From positions 1-56,775 of IMG/VR virus record IMGVR_UViG_3300015360_000005: a stretch of 56,775 bases of DNA; one strand, given 5' to 3'. This DNA comes from a virus. Lineage: Duplodnaviria > Caudoviricetes. Below are positions 5,801 through 50,665 of this stretch, in pieces (the first letter of the stretch is position 1; each line of letters starts with the position of its first letter). A program made the position numbers and the translations under genes. Below the pieces are notes generated by a model. It ran no database searches. It was not told the origin of the DNA and saw only the letters and a list, made by a program, of their open reading frames with translations.

Positions 5801-7578
5801 TGCCGAATCCTGGAAAGCGGATTATCGAGCTCCGTCACCCTACGTGGACAAAGACGCACGACTCGATGGTGAACTGGCGTCTCGCGTACGAAGGTGGCGA
5901 AGCGTTTGTCAACAAGAACTTGAGACGGTACTCGCGCCGCGAGACTCCAACCGAGTTCACTGAACGCAAGACTATCTCGTACAATCCGTCTCACACGAAG
6001 CGCGTGGTAAATTCGATTAGGAATTCCATTGCAGCCAAGCTCAACGAGGTCGTGCGCACTGGCGATCCCGCGTACCAAAAGATTATCCAAGAGGACATCG
6101 ACAACAAGAAGTCGTCCATCGATTCATTCTTGGCGTCGCAAGTCCTACCAATGCTTCTGGTACAAAAGCGAGCGCTCATATGTGTGGACGCGCCTCCGTT
6201 GCCTGAGAAGACAACTAAGGCAGAGGACGACGGTCACCCGTATGCGTGGTTCGTATCTGCGGAAGACTTGCTTACCTTCCACGAAGACGACGATGATGGC
6301 ATCCTGGACGTTGCGTTGATCCGCGAGTCCATCGATGAGACCGACGATGAGACGGGTCTGACAACTAAGTGTCGGATGCGCTATCGCTTCATCAAGTACC
6401 TGAAGCCTGGAATGGAATTCGGTGGCTTCAGCGGCGAAGGTGTATTGATCGCGCTGTACAAAGACAACGGTGAAGAAGACGGCGAGCCTGTGTTTATCAA
6501 AGGCATGACGCGACTGCCGTTGATCGACATCAACATTACAACGTCGATCGTGGAGGACATTGTCCGCCACCAGATTAGTTTGTTGAACCTTGCGTCCACG
6601 GACATGCAGTTCCTGTATCGCGCGAACTTCCCTGTGTTCACGCGCCAGATCAAGCCGAACAAGTCACTTGCACCTAAGATGGGTACGAAGAAGGTTGCGA
6701 GTGCTCCGGCTACTGTGTCACAGAGCTCCGAGTTCGACGAAGACGACAGCAATAATAAAGGTGCAACGCAGATGGGCGTGAGCACTGGATTGCAATACGA
6801 AGAAGGACTGAATTCTCCTAGCTTTATTGCGCCGACGACAGAGAATATCAAAATCTCGTTGGAGAAGCAGAGGGCACTGGTAGAAGAAATCCAAGTGCTG
6901 AGTGACCTTTCGTTGACGAACTTGTCGATCAAGGCATTGGAGCAATCAGGTAAGTCAAAGTCGATGGACCAGATTGGTAAGGAGGCTGGACTCGCATATC
7001 TCGGCACTGTGTTAGAGACCGCTGAGCGAGAGCTTGCGGAAGTCTTTCATGAGTTCCTCTCCTCGGCGGTTGAGTATACTATTACATATCCAACAGACTA
7101 CTCACTGAAGACACAGCAGGAACGCAACGAGGAGTGCGAGTCGCTCGACAAGGTTAAGAAGCTGATCCGCAATAAAATGTATCAGAAGTCTGTTGAGAAG
7201 CGCATTGCAGAGATCGCTACGCGACCGTTTGAATCTGCGGAAGAAGTAAAGAAGATCCAAGACAGCATCGACTTAGAATCTTGGCTCGACGACAATAACG
7301 AACGCGCGATCGCGATCCAACAGGATGTGATGAACAAGATCATGTCTGTGCCTACTGCACAAGCAATGCGCGGACTGGATCCAGAGGTGGAGAAGGCTGC
7401 ACTGGAAGCAGCGGCGTCTGCCGAAGCGGACTTACTAAGCGGCGGGATCGTTGACCCTGTAACAGGTGAGATGGTAGATCCGATTACTGGTGAACCAATG
7501 AAGGACAAGATCGATCCACTCACGGGGGAGTCACCCTTCGGTAAAAAGAAACCGTTTGTACCGTTCGGAAAGAAGTAG
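5800..7578 (+). CDS. Portal protein
   Basis: 592 aa, translationally coupled to TerL; N-terminal HP..W...YEGGEAF...L.RYSRRE pattern typical of siphophage portals. Confidence 0.8.
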   Translation: MPNPGKRIIELRHPTWTKTHDSMVNWRLAYEGGEAFVNKNLRRYSRRETPTEFTERKTISYNPSHTKRVVNSIRNSIAAKLNEVVRTGDPAYQKIIQEDIDNKKSSIDSFLASQVLPMLLVQKRALICVDAPPLPEKTTKAEDDGHPYAWFVSAEDLLTFHEDDDDGILDVALIRESIDETDDETGLTTKCRMRYRFIKYLKPGMEFGGFSGEGVLIALYKDNGEEDGEPVFIKGMTRLPLIDINITTSIVEDIVRHQISLLNLASTDMQFLYRANFPVFTRQIKPNKSLAPKMGTKKVASAPATVSQSSEFDEDDSNNKGATQMGVSTGLQYEEGLNSPSFIAPTTENIKISLEKQRALVEEIQVLSDLSLTNLSIKALEQSGKSKSMDQIGKEAGLAYLGTVLETAERELAEVFHEFLSSAVEYTITYPTDYSLKTQQERNEECESLDKVKKLIRNKMYQKSVEKRIAEIATRPFESAEEVKKIQDSIDLESWLDDNNERAIAIQQDVMNKIMSVPTAQAMRGLDPEVEKAALEAAASAEADLLSGGIVDPVTGEMVDPITGEPMKDKIDPLTGESPFGKKKPFVPFGKK

Positions 7579-7581
7579 CCT

Positions 7582-8754
7582 ATGGGTTTCATCGACGGTG
7601 TAATTGAGAACCGTGATCGGCTCGATAAGATCACGGATCGTGCCGCGAGGGAGATGGCAAGAGCTCTTGAGGACGCAAGGCAGGAGGCGATTAAGCGTGT
7701 CAAAGAGCGAATTAAAAAGTATGAGAAGGACGGTAAGATCGCGGATTCGCTACGAGCGCGCGAGGAGCTCAAATCGGCAAACGCTGATATCCAAGATGCC
7801 TTGGATGAAGCTTTGGGACTCACTACTAGGACACTTAAAGCGGCAAAGAGAGAGGCATTCAAGAAGTCCTTTGCCGATACAATCGTCAATGTTGAGGCAG
7901 CAACGGGTGATGAAGTTTCGCTCGGAGGCTCCTTCAATCAGGTCTTTCGCAATGCGCTCGCCCGCAGCGAGTCTAAGCCTGTCCTGGGAGTCAAGGACGA
8001 CAAAGCGTTTGAAGGTGTGCGCAAATGGTCTGAGAAAAAGCTGCGGAGTACCTTTACTGAAGCGATCGCGCGTGGGGATGGAGCGGATACACTGGCGCGA
8101 AAGATCTCAGATATAACTGGAGTTGGACAGCGTGCAGCAACGCGCATCGCTCGCACGAATATGACAGCAGTGATGAACGACGCGCAGAAAGCGGTCTACG
8201 ATAAAAACTCGGATGTCATTAGAGGGTATCGTTGGAACGCTACTTTGGATGGTCGCACAAGTCTTATCTGTGCAACGCTCCATGGCAAGGAGTGGAGGAT
8301 TGGTGAAGATCCTCCCGGTCCTCCGGCGCATCCCAACTGTCGGTCGGTTCTCATCCCGGTATTCAAGGATGAAGAACTACAAGCCGAGATCGATGCAGAC
8401 GAGCAGAGAGTTCGCAACATTGGTGGGAAGGGTACACAACTCATCGATGGTGAAACAACGTTTGAGGAATGGCTAGACCGCCAGTCTAAGGACGACCGCG
8501 TTGAGTTCATTGGAAGCGAGATTCGAGAAACGCTGTGGGACAAAGGGTACGTCAAGTTCGAAGAGCTAGTTAAGCCCGACTTGACACCACGGACTGATGA
8601 AGAGGCTGTGCAGCTTGCTCTGGCCAAGGACCCTAGTAATAGAGAGCTTCGTGGGATCGCTGACGAGATGGAAGTCAAGAAAAAGAAACTAGCAGACATA
8701 CGTCGCGAGGAACGATCCCTCGCACGCAAGCAGGAATTCGATCAAGGAGAATAG
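7582..8754 (+). CDS. MuF / SPP1 gp7-like minor head protein
   Basis: RIART, W.ATLDGRTS.IC..LHG and PPAHPNCRS motifs. Confidence 0.9.
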   Translation: MGFIDGVIENRDRLDKITDRAAREMARALEDARQEAIKRVKERIKKYEKDGKIADSLRAREELKSANADIQDALDEALGLTTRTLKAAKREAFKKSFADTIVNVEAATGDEVSLGGSFNQVFRNALARSESKPVLGVKDDKAFEGVRKWSEKKLRSTFTEAIARGDGADTLARKISDITGVGQRAATRIARTNMTAVMNDAQKAVYDKNSDVIRGYRWNATLDGRTSLICATLHGKEWRIGEDPPGPPAHPNCRSVLIPVFKDEELQAEIDADEQRVRNIGGKGTQLIDGETTFEEWLDRQSKDDRVEFIGSEIRETLWDKGYVKFEELVKPDLTPRTDEEAVQLALAKDPSNRELRGIADEMEVKKKKLADIRREERSLARKQEFDQGE

Positions 8755-29604: not shown

Positions 29605-30071
29605 TGGATACTGTGGTCGCCGCTGTAATCCGGCGGAACGAGGACAGCAGACTGCTGATCATCCGGCGTGGAAGGAAGCTCGCAGGCTTTCCCGGACTGC
29701 TTTGCCTTGTTGGTGGACGCGTAGACGCTACAGACGTCCGCGATCCGGGTGTAGGCAGCATGGCATATCGCGAAGAACTCACTCTAGGATACGCTTTAGT
29801 TCGAGAGGTGCGTCAAGAGATCGGTGGTAAGGTCGTCGTAGAACTCAAGGACATACAGAAGGCATATCGCTACGAAGACCCCAAGAAGCGATTCGTAGTT
29901 CACATGGTCGAATGTCATCTCGACATGAATGAAGATGAGTCTCTGGAACTAAGTCTACGCGAGGTAGATGAGTTGCGATGGATGACTGTGCAGGAGTTGC
30001 TGGCTGAGAAGGATCTCATCCCTTCCCTGCAAGAGTGGGTGAAGCATCAGATGACTGCGGATGCATCATAG
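29604..30071 (+). CDS. Nudix hydrolase
   Basis: GGRVD...ALVREVRQEIG (Nudix box with insertion), EVDELRW. Confidence 0.75.
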   Translation: MDTVVAAVIRRNEDSRLLIIRRGRKLAGFPGLLCLVGGRVDATDVRDPGVGSMAYREELTLGYALVREVRQEIGGKVVVELKDIQKAYRYEDPKKRFVVHMVECHLDMNEDESLELSLREVDELRWMTVQELLAEKDLIPSLQEWVKHQMTADAS

Positions 30072-30088
30072 GTAACAGGAGAGTTGAT

Positions 30089-31087
30089 ATGATTTCGGAA
30101 CACGAAACGCTGGATGAGATGTGGTTAGAGGCGAGCCAGTTCATTCTGTCCAATGGAAAGGATGTTGACTCGCGTGATGGTGCAAGCAAGGAGATCATGG
30201 GATACTCCGCTCGCCTCCTACAGCCTACTGCGAATTTCATGTTCAATCCAATTCGCCGTATGAGCCCATCTTATGCCGCTGCTGAGATGCTCTGGTATCT
30301 CAGTGGACGCAACGAGATTGACATGATTAAATGCTACGCTCCTCAGTACGAGCGGTTCGCGTCAAAGAGTGTCGCCAATGGAGCGTATGGACATCGCTGG
30401 ATCAATACAAATAAGTACACGGACGCTGTGGGCGTGGAAGAAAATCAACTCAATCGCCTACGTTACCTTCTCTCAACAAAGCAGGAGACGCGGCAAGCGG
30501 TTCTCACAATGTATTTCCCCCAAGACTTAATGCGCGCCGAGGGAGCATACGGTGAAGAGGGATCAAAAGACATTCCCTGCACACTGAGTCTACACTTTAT
30601 TGTTCGCGAGAAGAAGCTTAATCTCATCGCGACAATGCGGTCCAACGACGTATGGCTCGGCATGCCCTACGACGTATTCTGCTTTACTACCCTGCAGGAC
30701 CTTATCGCGCAGTCCCTCGGACTAGAGCTTGGATGGTATCAGCATCAGGCTACGTCATTACACGTGTATGAGCGCAATCTCGAGAAGTTCAAAGAGGCTG
30801 CAAATCCTCCCTCGTTTATATGTGGTCCTCTGGAGTATGTTCCGTCGCTCGCTGGTGAAATCTTCTGGGATGGAATTCACAAGGCACTGAACTTTGAATC
30901 GTGGTCACGGCGAGAGAAGCTTTTTCCAGCCGACATTGGAAGTGCGCTCGGCGAGAACAGCCTGTTAAAGTCCCTCTGCTTTATGTGTGCAACTAAATGG
31001 GAGCCTGCCTGTTGCCGGAAGGCTAGCAAGTTCACCGCGAACTCCCTCATGGCAAACTATCTCGAAGAGCATTGGAGCAAGGAATAA
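30089..31087 (+). CDS. Thymidylate synthase-fold pyrimidine (hydroxy)methylase, Asp (dCMP-type) specificity residue
   Basis: GAYG.RW, TRQAV, catalytic DIPCT, MRSNDVWLGMPYD, SLHVY. Confidence 0.85.
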   Translation: MISEHETLDEMWLEASQFILSNGKDVDSRDGASKEIMGYSARLLQPTANFMFNPIRRMSPSYAAAEMLWYLSGRNEIDMIKCYAPQYERFASKSVANGAYGHRWINTNKYTDAVGVEENQLNRLRYLLSTKQETRQAVLTMYFPQDLMRAEGAYGEEGSKDIPCTLSLHFIVREKKLNLIATMRSNDVWLGMPYDVFCFTTLQDLIAQSLGLELGWYQHQATSLHVYERNLEKFKEAANPPSFICGPLEYVPSLAGEIFWDGIHKALNFESWSRREKLFPADIGSALGENSLLKSLCFMCATKWEPACCRKASKFTANSLMANYLEEHWSKE

Positions 31088-31614: not shown

Positions 31615-32114
31615 GAATCGCCAGCTATTACCTGATGCAACTGGATCAGACAAAGGTAATGGCTGAAGAGCGAACGCGCTGCAAGCGGAAGGGAGTAGGA
31701 TGCGCTCTTCACAATTATACGGCGAGGGCGTTCTTTTCTAATAACGGTCCAGCTAGACCGAACTTCGGATGCTTGAACATTCCAGGAAAGTGTGGATGCG
31801 TTCATTCGGAACCGCGCGTTGTGATGAATGCTCTACGTGCAGGTTGGAAGTCCGGTCTGATCATGACCTGCACATATTCGCCGTGTGAAACGTGTGCTAA
31901 CATCATTATTGATTCTGGCGTAGTCGCCGGAGTAGTCTACGACATCATGACAACGTATCCCGACAGAGTATGTCGTGGAGCAGAATTCCTTCGCAGTGTA
32001 ATGCCAGTCATCACCGCGTTGGAGCTCAAGAAATTCTTGGCAGACCCTGCTACGGAGGTGGGAACAGGTGCTCAACTTAGGGAATGGGAATCTATTAGTC
32101 CAGTCAGCAAGTGA
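31599..32114 (+). CDS. dCMP deaminase-like zinc deaminase
   Basis: HSE and SPCETC motifs, C.RK.VGC. Confidence 0.85.
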   Translation: MRQQIRIASYYLMQLDQTKVMAEERTRCKRKGVGCALHNYTARAFFSNNGPARPNFGCLNIPGKCGCVHSEPRVVMNALRAGWKSGLIMTCTYSPCETCANIIIDSGVVAGVVYDIMTTYPDRVCRGAEFLRSVMPVITALELKKFLADPATEVGTGAQLREWESISPVSK

Positions 32115-34062
32115 ACTCCCGGAAGTCTTTGGAGTCAACGAGCTCTATCTGGACGTAGAAACACAGTCTAACAGCCCGAAGCGTCCCGGCGACTCCCCGT
32201 ATCAAGGGGATCGCATTTGTGGCGTCTCAATAACTTACGACGACTGCTCAAACGCATGGTACATTCCCGTGCGACACTCGGATGGGCGTTGGAACATAGA
32301 CATTGAGCCGTTCCAAAAATGGTTGCGAAAGGTTATCTGGTCTTCTAAGAGGTGGATCAATCACAACATTCTTTTTGACATGCACTTCTGTGCGATGGAT
32401 GGAGTTGAGTATACGTGGGATCAGTTTGTAACCGAGATCTTTGACACACTCGTGTTCGCCAAGATCGTGGACAGCGACCGCGTCATCGAAGGTTATGGAT
32501 TGAAAGACCTCGCTCACGATTGGTGCAATGCTGACAACGAAGATCGCACGCGGATGCAAGCGTATCTTAAAGGCATGAAGTCTAAGAACTATGCAGATTG
32601 TCCCGCAGACATCATGGGCGACTACGCTTGCGGAGACGTGCGAAAGAATCGCGCCGTGTACCACAAGATTCTGTCGATGTATGATTCCAGCATGAAGCTC
32701 TGCTGGGAAAACGAAATGCGTCTAACTCCTGTGATCTACGACATTGAAGATTTCGGAATGCCTGTTGACAACACAGAACTCAAGGTGGAGAAAGCGAAGT
32801 CGCTCCATAAACAGATTATGATGGGTGACAGGCTGCACACATTGCTCGGGCATGAAATGAACCCTAAGAGCAATCCGCAAGTCTATGACGTGCTGATCAA
32901 CCAGTTTGGACTTCCGATTCTCGCTACAAACGAAGACGAGAAAAGCAGCACGTTTGGAAATCCAACCTTCGACAAGGATGCGCTCGCGCTGTACCTTATT
33001 CATCCATCAGTACTTGCAGACCCTCTTAAGCTGGAAACAGTCAAGCTGATAAAAGGGCTCCGCGACGAATGTCACTTTGAGAGCTTGTTTCTGAACACAT
33101 ACATTGAGCAGGCTGTAAACGGCATTCTGCATCCGTCGTATAATCAAGTCGTGCGTACCGGACGCATGTCGTGTCGCAATCCAAATGCACAGCAACTAAA
33201 CAAACGCGCGAAGAAGTTAATTCATCCACGTCCTGGTATGGCAATCCTGTCCGCCGACTATTCGCAAATCGAATTCCGCCTCATCGCACATTATATTTGT
33301 GACCAAGAGGCGATTAAGGCATACAACGAAAAGCCAGACACAGACTTCCATTCCTGGGTCGCGTCTATGTGTGGTGTAAAGCGCAAGGCTGCGAAGTGCT
33401 TGAACTTCGGAATGGGATTTGGCGCTGGAAAAGCAAAGGTCGTTAAGATGCTTTCCGGTAATCCGGACGTCATAGAAGCAACGTCAGTCAAGATCAATCT
33501 CATGATCGAGTCTGGCGTGCTCATCGCTGCAAATCGAAACATTGAATACAAGAAGCAGTGCGAAATCCTAGCGGAGGGACTCTACAATATCTACCACGAA
33601 CGACTCCCTGGAATCAAGGCAACGTCGCGTCGCGCGGCGGATGTAGTTAAGGCACGCGGATACGTTTTCAACGCTTATGGAAGGCGTCGTCACTTGCAGG
33701 ATCGCTTCTGTTACAAGGCATTTAATTCTGTCGTTCAGTCGTGCGCGGCAGACGTCATGAAAGACACTACAGTCAAGCTCGCTCCGCGATACAACAAAGT
33801 CACACGAGACTGGGGATACAATATTTTCGCTCTCGTGCATGACGACGCGTCCGGCATGGGTCCTGTGGAATCAATCCTCGATCCAATGTTCCAAAGACAC
33901 CTTAAAACAACGTTGGAGGACTCCACGATAAAGTTTTCCATTCCAATTGTCACGGAAATGGGATACAGCCTGCGCGACTGGGGAGAAGCAAGCGCGGAAG
34001 AGCCTGTGGTGGTAGATGGGCATGTGGTAGCGGGACCGCTGAATAATTCCAGTCTACCATAG
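32068..34062 (+). CDS. polA: Family A DNA polymerase with 3'-5' exonuclease
   Basis: DVET, HNILFD, YACGD; RTGRMSC.NPN.QQ; motif A DYSQIEFR; motif B KCLNFGMGFG; motif C VHDD. Confidence 0.95.
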   Translation: MLNLGNGNLLVQSASELPEVFGVNELYLDVETQSNSPKRPGDSPYQGDRICGVSITYDDCSNAWYIPVRHSDGRWNIDIEPFQKWLRKVIWSSKRWINHNILFDMHFCAMDGVEYTWDQFVTEIFDTLVFAKIVDSDRVIEGYGLKDLAHDWCNADNEDRTRMQAYLKGMKSKNYADCPADIMGDYACGDVRKNRAVYHKILSMYDSSMKLCWENEMRLTPVIYDIEDFGMPVDNTELKVEKAKSLHKQIMMGDRLHTLLGHEMNPKSNPQVYDVLINQFGLPILATNEDEKSSTFGNPTFDKDALALYLIHPSVLADPLKLETVKLIKGLRDECHFESLFLNTYIEQAVNGILHPSYNQVVRTGRMSCRNPNAQQLNKRAKKLIHPRPGMAILSADYSQIEFRLIAHYICDQEAIKAYNEKPDTDFHSWVASMCGVKRKAAKCLNFGMGFGAGKAKVVKMLSGNPDVIEATSVKINLMIESGVLIAANRNIEYKKQCEILAEGLYNIYHERLPGIKATSRRAADVVKARGYVFNAYGRRRHLQDRFCYKAFNSVVQSCAADVMKDTTVKLAPRYNKVTRDWGYNIFALVHDDASGMGPVESILDPMFQRHLKTTLEDSTIKFSIPIVTEMGYSLRDWGEASAEEPVVVDGHVVAGPLNNSSLP

Positions 34063-34096
34063 GGGGACGGTCCCTAAAACTCGGACTAAGGGTCAC

Positions 34097-34130
34097 TTCC
34101 TCGCGTTTACCCTAGGGTAAACGCGAGGAA
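34097..34130. repeat. Perfect 34-bp palindrome
   Basis: TTCCTCGCGTTTACCCT|AGGGTAAACGCGAGGAA, no spacer. Confidence 0.95.
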
Positions 34131-34201
34131 AACCGACTACAAAATATATATTACTTTGTTTCACAAAGTTAGAGGAAAGTCATAGCAAAAATCCCCATAA
34201 G

Positions 34202-34210
34202 TGCTACAAT
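34202..34210 (+). promoter_or_regulatory. Putative extended -10 promoter for the ribozyme-punctuated operon
   Basis: TG-C-TACAAT after an AT-rich tract at 34139-34200. Confidence 0.55.
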
Positions 34211-34216
34211 GGGGTC

Positions 34217-34588
34217 TCAATCGAAACGGGTCGGCAGCGCAACCTCGAAACTGCCAGTCGCGTCCAGCGCGCAAGCTATTGCAAGGCCTCCGGGTCTCAG
34301 GATTGGTTGACGTGTTCATTCGCTGCTATAGTGGTAGCGAACAGCAACACTATCCGCAAGGGTCGTCACTACCATGTTTTCCGGGTCGCGCGCAATGCAA
34401 GGCGGAAAATCCGCTGTGTAAGATCGCTCCCGCAAAATAACGTTTCGAAAGAAGCGTGTAGGCTCAATCCGGAGAAATGGATTGTAGAAACGTCGCGAGA
34501 CGTTCCGAGTCCGAAAGACAAATGCAGGACCCTTAATGCACACAACTAGGTCGAAACGCTGCAAGGCGAACATTCACCTTGCAGCGTC
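34217..34588 (+). ncRNA. Candidate structured ncRNA/leader ending at hammerhead 1
   Basis: No ORF with a good RBS; hairpins CGTTTC-GAAA-GAAGCG (34441-56), CAATCC..GGATTG (34465-84), AACGTC-GCGA-GACGTT (34489-504), GCGGA.TCCGC. Confidence 0.45.
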
Positions 34589-34618
34589 TGCGAGTATGGA
34601 GCTCGCACTGACGAGACC
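34549..34618 (+). ncRNA. Type II hammerhead ribozyme 1
   Basis: GGTC-GAAA-[CGCTGCAAGG/CCTTGCAGCG]-TC-[TGCGAG/CTCGCA]-CTGACGA-GACC; GUC site, cut after 34588. Confidence 0.93.
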
Positions 34619-34642
34619 ACAACCAAAAGAGGAGAAAAGAAG

Positions 34643-35032
34643 ATGGCAAAGATTACGATTGAATGTGTGAGCGAAGTTTTTGATCCGATGGCCCGCAACC
34701 CTACCTACATAGCTAGCATCAGGGAGGTAAAAGCGTATTCGCGCACCTCGGCCAAGCATGCATTAGCATGCTTGTCTGAGAAAATAGTGGCATTGGCTCA
34801 AATGGCTGTGGAAAAACAAAACTCGTCGCGAGTCATCATTATGACGCGCGACGCCGAGAATGCTTTCTTGCTGGTGGAGTTTCGACATGGTGCATGGATG
34901 TGGACTGCTGTTCGTAACGGTGGCACTTCTATATCCTGCATAACGTGCAAGACCATCGAAGAGGCGCTGAAGTATGCACGTAGTCAGGCTGAAGAATCAT
35001 TCTCAGGAATATTGTGGGAGTACAAGCTTTAA
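34643..35032 (+). CDS. Hypothetical protein (ribozyme-flanked unit 1)
   Basis: AGAGGAG RBS after ribozyme 1. Confidence 0.75.
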   Translation: MAKITIECVSEVFDPMARNPTYIASIREVKAYSRTSAKHALACLSEKIVALAQMAVEKQNSSRVIIMTRDAENAFLLVEFRHGAWMWTAVRNGGTSISCITCKTIEEALKYARSQAEESFSGILWEYKL

Positions 35033-35048
35033 TCCCGACAAACTCTAA

Positions 35049-35102
35049 GGTCGAAACGCGCGCGAGCGCGTCTGCGAGTATGGAGCTCGCACTGACGAGA
35101 CC
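35049..35102 (+). ncRNA. Type II hammerhead ribozyme 2
   Basis: GGTC-GAAA-CGCGC(GCGA)GCGCG-TC-TGCGAG(TATGGAG)CTCGCA-CTGACGA-GACC; cut after 35072. Confidence 0.94.
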
Positions 35103-35126
35103 AGCGTTCTCAAGGATGGCAACAAA

Positions 35127-35639
35127 ATGAAGACCGAACTTTTCGCAGACTATAACGAGTTCCTTGCTCGCCCCAATAAAACAGTCAACGGCGCGACGCA
35201 AGCTTTCGCGTTGCAGAACCACATAGATCTGGACCTTGACTCTGGAAACAACGGATGCTGGAATATGTGCTCCGGCTGTGCCGACTGCACAGGCTGCTCC
35301 GGCTGCTCCCGCTGCTGGGACTGCTCCGGCTGCACAGGCTGCTCCCGCTGCTCCCGCTGCTCCGGCTGCACAGGCTGCACCGACTGCACAGGCTGCTTCC
35401 GCTGCTGGGACTGCTTCCGCTGCTGGGACTGCTCCGGCTGCTGCTCCGGCTGCACCGACTGCACCGACTGCTCCCGCTGCGTCCGCTGCTCCGACTGCAC
35501 CGACTGCACCGAATGCTCCCGCTGCGTCCGCTGCTCCGACTGCCTCCACTGCTCCCGCTGCTCCGGCTGCTCCCGCCGTGAAGCAGGTGCTAAAATAGTC
35601 AATGCAAACGGCAGCCACACTACTGCCGAGATTGGATAG
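35127..35639 (+). CDS. (Cys-x-x)n repeat protein, paralogue A (ribozyme-flanked unit 2)
   Basis: MKTELFADY N-terminus shared with 49624 and 50189; 9-bp TGCNNNNNC repeats. Confidence 0.75.
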   Translation: MKTELFADYNEFLARPNKTVNGATQAFALQNHIDLDLDSGNNGCWNMCSGCADCTGCSGCSRCWDCSGCTGCSRCSRCSGCTGCTDCTGCFRCWDCFRCWDCSGCCSGCTDCTDCSRCVRCSDCTDCTECSRCVRCSDCLHCSRCSGCSRREAGAKIVNANGSHTTAEIG

Positions 35640-35692
35640 GTCGAAACGCGCGCGAGCGCGTCTGCGAGTATGGAGCTCGCACTGACGAGACC
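35639..35692 (+). ncRNA. Type II hammerhead ribozyme 3
   Basis: Identical to ribozyme 2; overlaps the upstream TAG; cut after 35662. Confidence 0.94.
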
Positions 35693-35714
35693 AGCGTTCT
35701 CAAGGAGAAAGAAG

Positions 35715-36050
35715 ATGACAAAGAGCAACAAAGCAGCAAAGCAGCAGTACCGGAAGCTCTCACCGGAAGAGACAGCAATTCTCAACAAAATCGAATCCGA
35801 CAAGAAACAGCTCAAGGCACTGCGTAAGGCAGTCCGGCAGGCAGAGGTCAAGGACCGCAAGGACGCACGAACTGCGGAAGGCAAAGAAGCCAAAGTCAAG
35901 CGGGACGCTATCCGCAACGGACGCAATACTGCACGCAAGGAGCTCGCAAAGGAGTTTGCAGCCTTCCGCAAAGATCCGACGAAGAGCGGCAACGCGAAGG
36001 CGATGGCCGAAGCAATGAAGGAATGGATGAAAGTCAACGTCCCGTTCTAG
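35715..36050 (+). CDS. Basic Lys/Ala/Arg-rich helical protein (ribozyme-flanked unit 3)
   Basis: AAGGAG RBS, ATG 35715, highly basic. Confidence 0.75.
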   Translation: MTKSNKAAKQQYRKLSPEETAILNKIESDKKQLKALRKAVRQAEVKDRKDARTAEGKEAKVKRDAIRNGRNTARKELAKEFAAFRKDPTKSGNAKAMAEAMKEWMKVNVPF

Positions 36051-36102
36051 GTCGAAACGCGCGCGAGCGCGTACAACGGTATCTGCCGTTGCTGATGAGA
36101 CC
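36050..36102 (+). ncRNA. Type II hammerhead ribozyme 4
   Basis: GGTC-GAAA-CGCGC(GCGA)GCGCG-TA-CAACGG(TATCTG)CCGTTG-CTGATGA-GACC; GUA site, cut after 36073; stem I fully co-varied. Confidence 0.94.
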
Positions 36103-36144
36103 AGAGGTTCTCGGTTCCTCTAAAGGAACAGAAGGAGTAGTATC

Positions 36145-36621
36145 ATGGCTGACGGAGCAAAGAAGGTCGGTGGTGGAGTTAAGAAGGTCGGAGGAGGAGC
36201 TTCCGCAGGAGGCAAGCCGGAAAAGGAAAAGCGCGCGAAGCGTGTTGCGTACGATCCGAAGACCGCGGCGAGGAACGAGCTCGACAAGGAAGGTAAGCTG
36301 ACCGTGTCCCGCCCAGTAAACTGGGATCCGATCAAGCACAAGCCGATCAAGAAGAAGGACTTCGCGATGTCGGCGAATCACATGGGTCACACGGCGGACA
36401 TCATCGAACAGAAGGGTAAGGACCTGATCGAGAAGGCCGGGAAGATGAAGATCAAGGCCGACCGCATGTCCAAGATGGGTGACGAGAAGACCCAGAAGAC
36501 GGTCAAGCGCGCCGAGAAGGTCTTCAAGCAGCTCTCCGAACTCAAGGCATCGCTGGCCGAAGCCGGAATCGACATCAACGAAATCCTCAAGGAGCAGGAC
36601 GAAGCCGCTGCGAAGGAATAA
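36145..36621 (+). CDS. Lys-rich hypothetical protein
   Basis: AAGGAG RBS; strong G/C-ending codon bias suggests high expression. Confidence 0.8.
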   Translation: MADGAKKVGGGVKKVGGGASAGGKPEKEKRAKRVAYDPKTAARNELDKEGKLTVSRPVNWDPIKHKPIKKKDFAMSANHMGHTADIIEQKGKDLIEKAGKMKIKADRMSKMGDEKTQKTVKRAEKVFKQLSELKASLAEAGIDINEILKEQDEAAAKE

Positions 36622-36633
36622 ATTGTCCGGCGG

Positions 36634-36710
36634 AAGGGTGAGGCATTTAGCCTCACCCTTTATACTTGGACCTCCTTTGCATATAAAGGAGCTCCAAGTG
36701 TAAAGGGTGA
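36634..36710 (+). terminator. Terminator-like hairpin with overlapping alternative long hairpin
   Basis: AAGGGTGAGGC/GCCTCACCCTT (36634-60) versus 36653-36710 stem. Confidence 0.6.
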
Positions 36711-43707: not shown

Positions 43708-44589
43708 ATGCGAATTTACATTCCCACTCTCGGAAGACGAGACAAACAAATTACATTCAACACGTTGACAAAGTTCTGGCAAGAAAGAACGTGGTTCGTC
43801 GTCCACAGACGCGAAGTAGAACTATTTAAAGGACATCCGAATCTCGTTGTCGTCGAAAAGATCGGTGCTCCTCATGCACGCCAGACAGCGGTTGATCACT
43901 GCTTAAAAGGTTTCCTTGCAGGTGAGTGCTCTGCGTCATTGTTTATGTTTGACGATGACTTGCGATTCTCTCAACGCGTCAAGGATTGGAACATCGACAC
44001 AAATGTTCGCCTGGAACAGATGAGGCCTGACGATCTGCACAAGGCTCTCGAGCTCTTCCAGGAGCGTCTCGATGATTATGCTGCTGTCGGCATGTCCGCG
44101 CGAGGGATGAACAATCAAGTCCCCGACCATCCATACAAAGAAGCGGGACGGCTGATGCGCGCATTTGGTGTTCGCGTGGACATTCTGGACTACAAGAAGA
44201 TCCGCTTCGACAAATTCGAATACTGGGAAGACTTCCATGTCACACTGGAGCTCTTGAAGAATGGTTATGCGACTTACGTTTCGACTGCACACTGCAACGA
44301 CGGCATAACTAATGCTGACGGAGGTTGCAGCGAGTACCGTAATCGCGATGGACTGCTTAAGACACGCGGGGAGTTCATTGAGTATCATGCTCCTTACGTC
44401 AAAGCAAATGACAAGAGCTCCGAGTCGTGGGGCAATACAGACGAATCGACGATGCCGGACATCCGGATCGCATGGGTCAAATGTTATGAGGACGCAGTAA
44501 GGAGGTTTCAAAATGAAAGCAAGAGCGATAATACTAGCAGCAGGGAAGGCGGAACGGCTCCCGAACAAACTGCTCCTTCCGCAACATAA
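43708..44589 (+). CDS. GT-A DNA base glycosyltransferase (TET-associated glycosyltransferase-like)
   Basis: IYIPTLGR, MFDDDL.F, EDFHVTLELLKNG, GGCSEYR. Confidence 0.78.
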   Translation: MRIYIPTLGRRDKQITFNTLTKFWQERTWFVVHRREVELFKGHPNLVVVEKIGAPHARQTAVDHCLKGFLAGECSASLFMFDDDLRFSQRVKDWNIDTNVRLEQMRPDDLHKALELFQERLDDYAAVGMSARGMNNQVPDHPYKEAGRLMRAFGVRVDILDYKKIRFDKFEYWEDFHVTLELLKNGYATYVSTAHCNDGITNADGGCSEYRNRDGLLKTRGEFIEYHAPYVKANDKSSESWGNTDESTMPDIRIAWVKCYEDAVRRFQNESKSDNTSSREGGTAPEQTAPSAT

Positions 44590-49623: not shown

Positions 49624-50112
49624 ATGAAAACCGAACTTTTCGCAGACTACGGCGCGTTTCTTGCTCGCGCCGATAAAAAGGTTAATGGTACGACGCAAGC
49701 TTTCGCGTTGCAGAACCACATAGATCTGGACCTTGACTCTGGAAACAACGGATGCTGGAATATGTACTCCGGCTGCTCCGGCTGTGCCGACTGCCTCCAC
49801 TGCCTCCGGCTGCTCCGACTGCTCCCGCTGCCTCCACTGCTCCGACTGCTCCCGCTGCTCCCGCTGCCTCCACTGCTCCGGCTGCTCACGCTGCTCTCGC
49901 TGCCTCCACTGCTTCAACTGCTTCAACTGCTCCCGCTGCCTCCACTGCTCCGACTGCACCGACTGCACCGACTGCACCGACTGCTCCCGCTGCCTCCACT
50001 GCTCCGGCTGCTCACGCTGCTCTCGCTGCTCTCGCTGCTTCAACTGCTTCAACTGCTCCGCCGTGAATCAGGTGCTAAAATAGTCCGCGCTGTACAACAC
50101 AAAGGAGGGTGA
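49624..50112 (+). pseudogene. (Cys-x-x)n paralogue B, frameshifted by one extra C near 49804
   Basis: TGC-C-TCC-GGC moves the Cys frame to the ORF ending 50083; the start frame stays open to 50112 as a Leu/Pro/Arg repeat. Confidence 0.65.
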
Positions 50113-50188: not shown

Positions 50189-50665
50189 ATGAAAACCGAA
50201 CTTTTCGCAGACTATAACGAGTTCCTTGCTCGCCCTGATAAAAAGGTTAATGGTACAACGAAAGATTTCGCGTCGCAGAACCACATAGATCTGGATAATG
50301 ATGTTGGAAACAATGGATGCTGGAATATGTGCTCCGGCTGTGCCTACTGCACCGACTGTGCCGACTGCTTCCACTGCTCCCGCTGCTCCCGCTGCACCGA
50401 CTGCTCCCGCTGCTCCCGCTGTACGGGCTGCACCGACTGCTCTCGCTGCTTCCGCTGCTGGGACTGCTCCGGCTGCTCCGGCTGCACCGACTGCACCGAC
50501 TGCAAAGGCTGCTCCGACTGCACCGACTGCCTCCACTGCCTCCACTGCTCCGACTGCAAAGGCTGCGCCAGTTGCTCCCGCTGCTCCGGCTGCTCCGACT
50601 GCCTCAGCTGCCTCAGCTGCTCCCGCTGCTTCAACTGCTCCGCCGTGAATCGGATGTTAAAATAG
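50189..50665 (+). CDS. (Cys-x-x)n repeat protein, paralogue C
   Basis: AGGAGG RBS, intact Cys frame. Confidence 0.75.
   Translation: MKTELFADYNEFLARPDKKVNGTTKDFASQNHIDLDNDVGNNGCWNMCSGCAYCTDCADCFHCSRCSRCTDCSRCSRCTGCTDCSRCFRCWDCSGCSGCTDCTDCKGCSDCTDCLHCLHCSDCKGCASCSRCSGCSDCLSCLSCSRCFNCSAVNRMLK

Follow-up and report, generated by a model that had tools for sequence, protein, structure and literature searches.

The window analysed here, a 56,775-nucleotide stretch that is the complete genome (56.8-kb) of an uncultured, lytic-looking phage, carries four type II hammerhead ribozymes on the coding strand just 3' of the DNA polymerase gene, and each of them sits between a stop codon and the following ribosome-binding site. 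The order is DNA polymerase, leader, HH1, a gene of 129 aa, HH2, a Cys-repeat gene, HH3, a gene of 111 aa, HH4, F0 and a pair of hairpins (Table 1). The four elements are most likely placed within one transcription unit of the phage replication module, and we propose, with a probability of roughly three in four, that they cut a polycistronic transcript into single-gene mRNAs and insulate the small genes. We infer co-transcription of the array genes from the absence of promoter-like and terminator-like sites on the + strand of the array interior, as judged by consensus signals only. The hairpins 3' of F0 likely mark the end of the transcription unit; in the relative L083 the equivalent junction is occupied by a hammerhead, and in relatives generally a hammerhead is often found immediately 5' of F0. 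The leader holds weak ORFs only (79-80 aa, GTG or TTG starts), folds at positions 34200-34548 with a z of -2.46 and does not resemble the 540-nt stretch at the corresponding place in L083. The 14-nt leader of repeat A ends within the Shine-Dalgarno sequence, and the stop codon of cargo gene 2 overlaps the first base of hammerhead copy 3.

Table 1 Features of the hammerhead array and of the related genes elsewhere in the window.
Feature	Position	Strand	Basis or remark
Gene of family A DNA polymerase, anchor 5' of the array	32068..34062	+	Pfam DNA_pol_A 8.9e-35, 3'-5' exonuclease domain
ORF-poor 486-nt leader 5' of ribozyme 1	34063..34548	+	Hairpin at 34098-34129
Hammerhead type II copy 1, long stem III	34549..34618	+	Predicted cleavage after C34588
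Cargo gene 1, 129 aa, no known family	34643..35032	+	ORF, family searches
69-nt repeat A: hammerhead copy 2 (35049-35102) and 14-nt leader	35048..35116	+	Predicted cleavage after C35072
Cargo gene 2, 170 aa, (Cys-x-x)n repeat protein	35127..35639	+	phrog_15341, 9.6e-15, unknown function
69-nt repeat B: hammerhead copy 3 (35639-35692) and 14-nt leader	35638..35706	+	Predicted cleavage after C35662
Cargo gene 3, 111 aa, lysine-rich, no known family	35715..36050	+	ORF, family searches
Copy 4, type II hammerhead with CUGAUGA core and a stem I of its own	36050..36102	+	Predicted cleavage after A36073
F0, conserved basic coiled-coil protein, last gene of the unit	36145..36621	+	Relatives
Two strong hairpins 3' of F0	36633..36701	+	Fold z -5.78
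Paralogue of cargo gene 2, without ribozyme	49624..50112	+	Repeat part in another frame (Leu-rich)
Tandem neighbour of the 49624 copy, also a paralogue of cargo gene 2 without ribozyme	50189..50665	+	Sequence comparison

The core, the helices, the placement, the recurrence in relatives and the homogenisation within genomes are all established at the level of sequence. A core-plus-spacing pattern matches four times in the window against 0.51 expected, a count that 0 of 100 shuffles reach, and a helix-checking descriptor recovers the same four sites, all on the + strand. The core is complete in every copy, with CUGA(C/U)GA, GAAA, the A-U pair that closes stem III and C or A at position 17 (tested as C3 U4 G5 A6 N7 G8 A9, G12 A13 A14, the A15.1-U16.1 pair and H17, that is not G, at the cleavage site). 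The minimum-energy structure is the hammerhead three-way junction in 4/4 copies, with 4 bp in stem II, 6-11 bp in stem III and 7 bp in stem I, and the descriptor requires, as the four folds show, an open stem II that contains the 5' and 3' ends, the topology of type II. No family's gathering score is reached in the Rfam scan of the window: copies 1-3 score 34.0, 30.5 and 30.5 bits with Hammerhead_II (RF02276), for which the gathering score is 37, and copy 4 is not among the 11 matches listed for the window. Copies at the same position in relatives do pass it, at 38.7 in L083, 41.2 in L038, 40.7 in L121 and seven times at 40.2-51.6 in L117. No other ribozyme class attains its Rfam gathering score in eight loci, seven of which are ribozyme-free relatives, or in seven array-bearing loci.

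Covariation among relatives points the same way. Across 59 model matches (55 distinct rows), paired cells amount to 96.4% against 62.1% in shuffles and both sides change at 16 of 16 base pairs; the covariation of 0.797, in an alignment itself fitted to the covariance model, compares with 0.169 in shuffles, is equalled in 0 of 500 of them and falls to at most 0.101 with slid partners. The descriptor finds nothing in shuffles of 79 loci; one of its matches (L076, AT-rich, with minimal stems) was dropped. That the repeats are inert, or resemble hammerheads by chance, accords with Rfam scores under the gathering score in the window but is hardly credible beside the pattern count, the empty descriptor shuffles, the strong covariation and a position and strand conserved in 25 genomes.

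Relatives were fetched via the family A DNA polymerase gene; others at 56-67% polymerase identity exist outside the set compared here. The collections searched contain no close relative, and tblastn with the polymerase gave 37% identity at best. The polymerase query alone gave no match in IMG/VR, and neither did either of the exact ribozyme halves. A blastn search of 50,697 phage records matched only low-complexity Cys-repeat DNA; the matches to Edwardsiella phage MSW-3, in an unrelated Gp2.5-like gene, and to Pseudomonas phage AAT-1, in an unrelated gene adjoining that of the major head protein, were rejected as spurious.

Hammerhead arrays occur in 25 of 82 distinct relatives, with 83 ribozymes in total and up to 8 copies in one genome. 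Covariance-model matches lie on the strand of the polymerase gene in 59/59 cases in one scan and 59/60 in another, from which the single minus-strand match (L156) was dropped. The median distance from the upstream stop codon to the ribozyme start is 2 nt, with 64% of 76 between -5 and +15, and that from the ribozyme end to the following start codon is 33 nt, with 76% of 82 at 10-60. Exactly one ORF of at least 40 aa is present in 38 of the 58 inter-ribozyme intervals; most of the 8 intervals that appeared empty owe this to the crude ORF caller, which in six of the seven examined had missed an ORF of 47-125 aa. The initial annotation had called the ribozyme-plus-RBS units portable punctuation, and this description fits: the ribozyme-plus-leader modules precede differing genes in these 25 relatives, show homogenisation and mosaicism inside single genomes, and are present beside some members of a gene family and absent beside others. 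Ribozyme number varies from 0 to 7 among close relatives within one clade of the polymerase tree, which was built without L081 and L082 on account of their short polymerase matches. In L008 a 29-nt deletion that removes GAAA has left a relic ribozyme with no gene change, and L095 keeps six conserved gene families with no ribozyme at all, so in some lineages the same genes can do without the ribozyme.

In the mechanism that we propose, each ribozyme would cleave itself during transcription after GUC or GUA (positions in Table 1). This would leave a 2',3'-cyclic phosphate on the stem III hairpin at the 3' end of the upstream mRNA, and the downstream mRNA would carry a 5'-OH, followed by the stem I hairpin and then a short standard leader that contains a Shine-Dalgarno sequence. 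Single-gene mRNAs of 484, 590 and 411 nt and the F0 message are the predicted products, and the small genes would be translated and degraded independently of their neighbours, as with the engineered RiboJ. Recombination of the modules may also ease the gain, loss or reshuffling of small genes. Cleavage in vivo and an effect on expression are thus expectations from structure and placement; three DNA runs and no RNA run are listed as carrying the stretch. Precedents come from the prophage hammerheads described in Perreault et al. 2011 (PMC3088659), which reports clusters flanking single genes, polycistronic RNAs of ~2 kb cut in vitro and cleavage in vivo, and from Desulfovibrio vulgaris, for which the cyPhyRNA-seq report (PMC8782182) gives cleavage of three type II hammerheads.

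According to Perreault et al. 2011 (PMC3088659), the majority of type II hammerheads carry a pseudoknot between loop I and the 3' tail, just 3' of stem II. It is not a strict class requirement. At least 4 bp of it can form in 37 of 75 parsed ribozymes of relatives; the best complementarity in the window copies is 2-3 bp, below the 4 bp tested, so their activity could be low or conditional. The 18 model matches that the strict parser could not split into modules were left out of the pseudoknot and homogenisation counts. An alternative idea is that the ribozymes are tuned switches that respond, for example, to ions, to a protein partner or to whether the upstream ORF is being translated, and that set the relative amounts or timing of the small proteins in place of constitutive cutting. 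The upstream stop abuts or overlaps the ribozyme (median 2 nt), so that a terminating ribosome would cover stem II and the GAAA strand, the window copies do without the stabilising pseudoknot, and in the leader of copy 3 UUCUC can pair with GAGAA of its own Shine-Dalgarno sequence; regulated cleavage is also raised for phage hammerheads by Perreault et al. (PMC3088659). Nevertheless the stems are short and canonical, with no ligand-binding or extra domain, and we regard such regulation as unlikely.

Over 69 nt (35048-35116 = 35638-35706), through AGCGTTCTCAAGGA, copies 2 and 3 do not differ at a single position, which confirms that their identity runs into the ribosome-binding site as first annotated, and the repeat unit between them is indeed 590 bp. 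The proposed sharing of stem I by copy 1 and of stem III by copy 4 with these two copies also holds: copies 1, 2 and 3 share an identical 20-nt stem I segment, and a 25-nt stem II/III segment shows no difference between copies 3 and 4 and 96% identity in copy 2. The stem II strands GGUC and GACC are common to all four copies, and the cleavage-site nucleotide is where the mosaic junctions lie, both that of copy 1 with 2/3 and that of 2/3 with copy 4. The same pattern extends to the relatives, in which identical stem III hairpins make up 7.5% of 106 within-genome pairs versus 0.07% of 2669 between-genome pairs, and identical stem I hairpins 9.4% versus 0% of the same pairs; the observed within-genome means were reached in 0 of 1000 label shuffles. 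Mosaic pairs, with one hairpin at least 90% identical and the other less than 70%, account for 14 of the 106 within-genome pairs and come from 7 of the 18 genomes with at least two parsed ribozymes. Because the module is repeated, copies would recombine or convert one another within a genome, which would yield identical and mosaic copies. A crossover in the shared core cannot part stem III from stem I, so ordinary homologous exchange fails to account for the hairpin-level mosaics.

The gene between copies 2 and 3 is, as annotated, a paralogue of two genes elsewhere in the genome: it is 65% identical to the 50189 gene (E 5e-62) and has N- and C-terminal parts in common with the 49624 gene, and no ribozyme lies near either of these (Rfam at gathering score, core-plus-spacing pattern and covariance model). 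Its homology to the paralogues starts ~10 nt 5' of the ATG, exactly where the 69-nt identity ends (35116/35117), and stops ~36 nt before the stop codon. The three Cys-repeat paralogues are mosaic among themselves, so ectopic exchange occurs in this genome. IMG/VR holds no relative of cargo gene 1 or of the N-terminal part of the Cys-repeat gene. The window copy of F0 belongs to no Pfam, PHROG or NCBIfam family and its profile (25 members) finds nothing significant among PDB sequences (best E 0.53); weak matches to the H-NS N-terminal part occur in 5 of the 25 members (best E 6.6e-4).

These repeats invite a reading at the DNA level, in which the ribozyme-plus-leader repeats are recombination joints and homologous exchange deletes, duplicates or swaps one-gene units, possibly via DNA circles, in the manner of the PeSL (promoter/stem-loop) modules of T4-type phages. 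In common with PeSL cassettes, the region is variable and its small ORFs are flanked by repeated regulatory modules. One gene is flanked by the 69-nt perfect direct repeat, the end of which coincides with the Cys-repeat homology boundary; hairpin-level mosaics recur in several genomes, the paralogues attest to ectopic exchange and ribozyme counts vary among close relatives. The initial annotation expected variable cargo between conserved ribozymes in relatives, and one such slot exists: between the gene families F8 and F0, two ribozymes bound mutually unrelated ORFs, 93 aa long in L038, 47 aa in L097, 81 aa in L094 and 219 aa in L108. The cargo of this slot is at shuffled-baseline identity, whereas one flanking ribozyme-plus-leader module reaches 0.72-0.76 against a baseline of 0.53-0.55 in 3 of 6 pairs; conserved genes of these four genomes are also near shuffled-baseline identity, so nucleotide breakpoints are not mappable. 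The order of the families F16, F35, F8 and F0 further differs between L038 and L011.

Other observations count against the cassette reading. A homologue in another genome is found for 25 of 77 genes inside arrays versus 108 of 272 outside in the same genomes (p 0.29), and the array genes are thus not more orphan-like than their neighbours; in ribozyme-free genomes 178 of 799 genes have a homologue. In L095, without any ribozyme, the genes flanked by the same conserved anchors are variable, the region 3' of the polymerase gene is equally variable where ribozymes are absent, and the ribozyme of L008 was lost in place with its genes unchanged. Four near-identical contig pairs (99.79-99.98% over 8-18.6 kb) contain 0 gaps and no unit indels. 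In run X2, contigs of a strain with few differences cross HH1 (34251-34713) and HH4 (36002-36250) with neighbours as in the window. The run contigs, assembled at k=31, break off within each of the ribozyme repeats, and loss of a unit between two perfect 69-nt repeats yields no new 31-mer and would stay invisible to them; X2 and X3 also have uncovered stretches, for example X2 at 35657-35898. The contig joints listed for the DNA runs show skips of 150 and 256, with inserted letters that match the paralogues, and none skips the 590 bp that such contigs could not reveal. One X3 contig that fits from 35056 or 35646 onward has 255 unrelated letters ahead of that and lacks the GAAA strand; it may stem from a GC-rich palindrome of another organism and was not counted.

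The phage genome has no integrase or tyrosine recombinase (no Phage_integrase match at E <= 0.1) and no RecT, ERF or RecA family, and the hairpin-level mosaics are beyond the reach of ordinary homologous exchange in the shared core. In the established view of phage mosaicism, that of Hendrix and Hatfull, DNA is joined illegitimately at random and selection then retains joints at gene borders, which counts against DNA cassettes. We therefore consider homologous exchange of one-gene units at the modules possible but doubtful, and the initial annotation, in which ribozymes may serve as recombination borders, is supported in part: one ribozyme-bounded slot does carry variable cargo, but equal variability without ribozymes, decay in place and the lack of unit indels in the four contig pairs weigh against such borders.

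The shared stem II strands would allow an excised unit to re-form a nicked hammerhead across its own ends, and the mosaic junctions fall at the cleavage-site nucleotide. Units could accordingly be imagined to be excised by two cleavages, joined or circularised by the reverse reaction or by host RtcB and copied into DNA, much as in retrozymes. The complete phage genome encodes neither RtcB nor, as the initial annotation had noted, a reverse transcriptase (no RVT_1 match), and a single-nucleotide junction between hairpins is also expected from selection for intact helices. The hammerheads here are type II, and those of retrozymes are said to be type III in long repeats. In the results given for similar arrays in Perreault et al. 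(PMC3088659), spliced or circular products were not detectable. The RNA-circle route suggested at the outset is thus highly improbable. A broader version, in which the ribozyme-plus-leader is a mobility joint and hammerhead-bounded units are excised as DNA or RNA circles and reinserted at any hammerhead copy, we hold to be quite improbable. The circles would be DNA formed by exchange between modules, or RNA re-ligated across the shared stem II and then copied back; if so, members of the clade would exchange small genes as units ready for expression, and mosaics with a junction at the cleavage nucleotide would be the scars.

Processing into single-gene mRNAs has a known counterpart. In the arrays of Perreault et al. 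2011 (PMC3088659), several hammerheads including type II flank single genes or short blocks, the identities of the genes are not constant, and the proposed role is the processing of long phage transcripts to single-gene mRNAs, with circles and splicing also considered. The single-gene array arrangement is therefore already known from that paper, and a similar array may already be contained in its Figure 3 or Dataset S1. In contrast to those arrays, the phage of the window is uncultured, lytic-looking and without integrase; the arrays here keep a conserved place 3' of the polymerase gene in relatives and up to 8 copies, their modules are homogenised and mosaic within genomes, and the window copies are without the usual pseudoknot. 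The purpose of many bacterial and phage hammerheads needs more work to define, according to a 2019 review (PMC6765202). The clade offers a natural comparative series, with the same genes accompanied by 0 to 8 ribozymes and one relic decaying in place, so that the ideas of insulation or mRNA processing and of cassettes are directly testable.

Other systems are alike in part. Retrozymes have hammerhead repeats that bound a unit excisable and circularisable as RNA in principle. According to Cervera et al. 2016, they are reportedly non-autonomous retroelements of eukaryotes, whose long repeats carry type III hammerheads and whose movement relies on a retrotransposon reverse transcriptase. Here, by contrast, type II hammerheads bound a translated phage gene, and there is no reverse transcriptase. 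Integron cassettes are also one-gene units parted by a repeated structured site, with variable and mostly unknown cargo, but integrons need an integrase and attC, whereas this phage has no tyrosine recombinase and its repeats are sense-strand ribozymes. Two further systems bear comparison, namely the RiboJ insulator, of which Lou et al. 2012 is reportedly the original paper, and the PeSL cassettes of T4-type phages, which Comeau et al. 2014 are said to have treated as well. In RiboJ, as outlined in PMC6206723 and PMC8383906, a ribozyme, a hairpin and then the ribosome-binding site strip the upstream context from the 5' end of a gene; it was engineered from a satellite-RNA ribozyme and is used singly, whereas the window holds a natural type II array. 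PeSL cassettes, as characterised by Arbiol et al. 2010 (PMC2839356), likewise have a short repeated regulatory module that flanks small ORFs in variable regions; these ORFs are mostly unknown and non-essential, and shuffling by module recombination was proposed. The PeSL module, however, is a promoter and terminator acting at transcription, whereas hammerhead modules act on RNA, and for PeSL phages of ~96% identity indels and DNA mini-circles were demonstrated (PMC2839356). If the modules described here do drive gene exchange, an RNA-acting element would join the short list of repeated regulatory modules that shuffle phage genes.

Pattern, helix and folding evidence agree on the four hammerhead ribozymes that the initial annotation had proposed; they lie downstream of the family A DNA polymerase gene. 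The core-plus-spacing pattern matches the window four times against 0.51 expected (four or more in 0 of 100 shuffles), a descriptor that also requires the three helices recovers the same four copies and gives no hits on shuffles of 79 related loci, and the minimum-energy fold is the hammerhead three-way junction in all four. Rfam Hammerhead_II scores copies 1–3 at 34.0, 30.5 and 30.5 bits (threshold 37), and copy 4 is not among the matches listed. The sub-threshold scores fit the absence from the window copies of a 3' pseudoknot built into the Rfam model; pairing of loop I with the tail reaches 2–3 bp at best. Copies in several relatives do meet Rfam's own threshold.

Coordinates of the ribozymes and associated features in the window and related loci (L-numbers)
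Feature	Genome	Coordinates	Strand	Remark
Type II hammerhead copy 1	window	34549–34618	+	predicted cleavage after C34588
Type II hammerhead copy 2	window	35049–35102	+	predicted cleavage after C35072
Type II hammerhead copy 3	window	35639–35692	+	predicted cleavage after C35662
Type II hammerhead copy 4	window	36050–36102	+	predicted cleavage after A36073
69-nt identity, copies 2 and 3	window	35048–35116 = 35638–35706		
(Cys-x-x)n repeat gene in array	window	35127–35639		phrog_15341, function unknown
(Cys-x-x)n repeat paralogue	window	49624–50112		phrog_15341, function unknown
(Cys-x-x)n repeat paralogue	window	50189–50665		phrog_15341, function unknown
F0 gene	window	36145–36621		
Post-F0 hairpins	window	36633–36701		
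ORF-poor stretch	window	34063–34548		486 nt, z −2.46
Thymidylate-synthase-like gene	window	30035–31087		
Homologue of beta-glucosyl-HMC alpha-glucosyltransferase	window	43708–44589		
Leader with AGGAGATAGTAC.ATG (example)	L038	14479–14517		
Leader with AGGAGATAGTAC.ATG (example)	L047	12410–12445		
Leader with AGGAGATAGTAC.ATG (example)	L036	5387–5415		
Leader with AGGAGATAGTAC.ATG (example)	L121	13093–13122		
Intact hammerhead	L010	12201–12276		
Hammerhead relic	L008	~7530–7590		
Hammerhead with insertion	L036	6598–6715		
tRNA gene	L038	16742–16813		Rfam 58.8 bits

Every ribozyme of the array occupies an intergenic spacer: the first G of copy 3 is also part of the stop codon of the Cys-repeat gene and that of copy 4 part of the stop codon of the 111-aa gene, an in-frame TAG abuts copy 1, and a Shine-Dalgarno sequence and ATG follow within 24–42 nt downstream of every ribozyme. 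No consensus promoter or terminator was found on the + strand within the array, and F0, the last gene, is followed by two strong hairpins (fold z −5.78). Cleavage would leave the upstream RNA ending in the stem III hairpin and the downstream RNA beginning with the stem I hairpin and a leader predicted to be mostly open. The type II hammerheads of the array most likely divide a phage operon into insulated messages of one gene each. Cleavage by ribozyme 1 would also remove from the first mRNA the moderately structured, ORF-poor stretch that separates it from the polymerase gene; L083, the closest relative with data (polymerase identity 56% on the tree's columns), has 540 ORF-poor nt in the corresponding position that are not similar to it in sequence. 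The two post-F0 hairpins are adjacent and share a CACCCU strand, so that alternative pairings are possible, and Rfam gave only chance miRNA-like matches to them; the equivalent site in L083, the F0–F4 junction, carries a hammerhead.

Relatives were collected with a polymerase profile (79 IMG/VR and 80 metagenome loci) and searched with a covariance model seeded with the window's four copies and rebuilt from its 46 matches. The rebuilt model gave 59 matches in the first set, every one on the same strand as the polymerase gene, and 60 in the second, where one opposite-strand match was left out. The helices have good support: cells are paired in 96.4% of cases compared with 62.1% in shuffles, all 16 helix pairs have both-side changes, and slid controls collapse. 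Because the sequences were aligned by the model itself, these figures lean in its favour. After removal of duplicate contigs, 82 distinct genomes extend 1.5 kb or more beyond the polymerase gene on its downstream side; 25 of them contain 83 hammerheads there, 1 to 8 per genome. Their placement is uniform (median 2 nt past the upstream stop and 33 nt ahead of the next start); 38 of 58 inter-ribozyme intervals hold one ORF, and six of seven 'empty' intervals inspected contain an ORF that the caller missed. The trait clusters on a tree of the polymerases, where it needs 14 changes vs 21.3 in shuffles (none of 500 as low), with at least seven changes required on its starred branches. Post-ribozyme leaders end in a near-fixed translation start region, AGGAGATAGTAC.ATG, between phages whose polymerases are only ~40–70% identical; another leader word, GTTCTC, is present in 7 of the 75 modules parsed, three of them the window's. 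The L036 insertion (~60 nt, stem III loop) comprises two 23-nt direct repeat copies, and the L038 tRNA gene lies a few genes downstream of its array. F0 has 54 homologues in related loci (107–197 aa), is conserved with a basic N-terminus plus a coiled coil, is often duplicated and often has a hammerhead directly upstream; no family could be assigned, and H-NS N-terminal domain hits are weak and limited to 5 of 25 members.

The initial annotation's description of the repeats is borne out by sequence comparison: copies 2 and 3 are identical, copy 1 shares their stem I, and copy 4 shares 25 nt with them over stems II and III. It also suggested that the ribozymes may be borders at which cargo is exchanged, a reading that we consider doubtful. 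Hairpin mosaics and replaceable cargo in one slot speak for it. Ribozyme hairpins resemble one another much more within than between genomes: of 106 within-genome pairs, 7.5% have an identical stem III and 9.4% an identical stem I, vs 0.07% and 0% of 2669 between-genome pairs; 0 of 1000 label shuffles match the within-genome similarity means, and 14 of the 106 pairs, spread over 7 of 18 genomes, are window-like mosaics that combine a nearly identical hairpin with an unrelated one. The slot between the conserved families F8 and F0, bounded by two hammerheads, holds unrelated ORFs of 93, 47, 81 and 219 aa (L038, L097, L094 and L108), the order of families F16, F35, F8 and F0 differs between L038 and L011, and L083 keeps the window's flanks (polymerase, F0, F4, SNF2), yet has a single hammerhead at a different junction and other small genes. 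However, variability is not ribozyme-specific: 25 of 77 ribozyme-bounded genes have a homologue in another genome; among their neighbours the count is 108 of 272 (p 0.29), and in ribozyme-free genomes it is 178 of 799 genes. L095 has no hammerhead and keeps F8, F25, F0, F2, F11 and F7 alongside variable genes of other kinds. In one case a ribozyme has decayed while its flanking genes stayed unchanged. L008 and L010 (80% identical in the polymerase region) have a relic and an intact hammerhead, respectively, between the same two genes; the relic retains stem I and CUGACGAG, whereas GAAA has gone with stem III's 5' strand in a 29-nt deletion. By blastn pattern alone, L009 resembles L008. Near-identical contig pairs had no gaps (4/4). 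K-mer contigs from three sequencing runs broke inside every ribozyme repeat and are neutral as to a 590-bp deletion between copies 2 and 3.

Copies 2 and 3 enclose a gene for a (Cys-x-x)n repeat protein, 65% identical to the product of the 50189 gene and related to that of 49624; as had been noted, these paralogues are ribozyme-free (Rfam at gathering, pattern and covariance model). Homology to them begins ~10 nt upstream of the ATG, at the very point at which the 69-nt ribozyme identity ends, which speaks for cargo exchange, and stops ~36 nt short of the stop codon; these limits imply that what was copied into the array was the ORF alone. The 49624 and 50189 copies form a 565-bp tandem unit immediately 3' of the ribonucleotide reductase gene. 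An 8-nt gap relative to the other two copies puts the 49624 repeat in another, Leu-rich frame, which stays open and regains the C-terminal tail RRE.GAKIV, reached in the 35127 copy via a 1-nt difference. The N-terminal DNA is mosaic among the three, which suggests gene conversion.

The array sits in the replication and nucleotide-metabolism module of a complete 56,775-bp IMG/VR genome with direct terminal repeats, among genes for primase-helicase, NUDIX hydrolase, a thymidylate-synthase-like protein, dCMP deaminase, family A DNA polymerase, SNF2 helicase, DNA ligase, glucosyltransferase and ribonucleotide reductase. From gene content, the thymidylate-synthase-like and glucosyltransferase genes suggest a modified, possibly glucosylated, base in the phage DNA. 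No close cultured phage was found (best polymerase tblastn identity 37%). Family searches of the genome found no RT, as the initial annotation had stated, and no RtcB, integrase, RecT, ERF or RecA, a further point against exchange at the ribozymes. Exchange through RNA circles is highly improbable; Perreault et al. 2011 (PMC3088659) report that spliced or circular products were sought and none found.

What is new here is the conserved position of the array across a large uncultured phage clade, its homogenised and hairpin-mosaic modules, the relic in L008 and evidence, at the level of genes, that the cargo of one slot is replaceable. The window array itself is a real, tidy example of a known hammerhead-array type. 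Perreault et al. 2011 describe this arrangement, propose processing into single-gene mRNAs and report cleavage in vitro and in vivo. Hence, mRNA punctuation and insulation are our best explanation, in a role that may be likened to that of the engineered RiboJ part.
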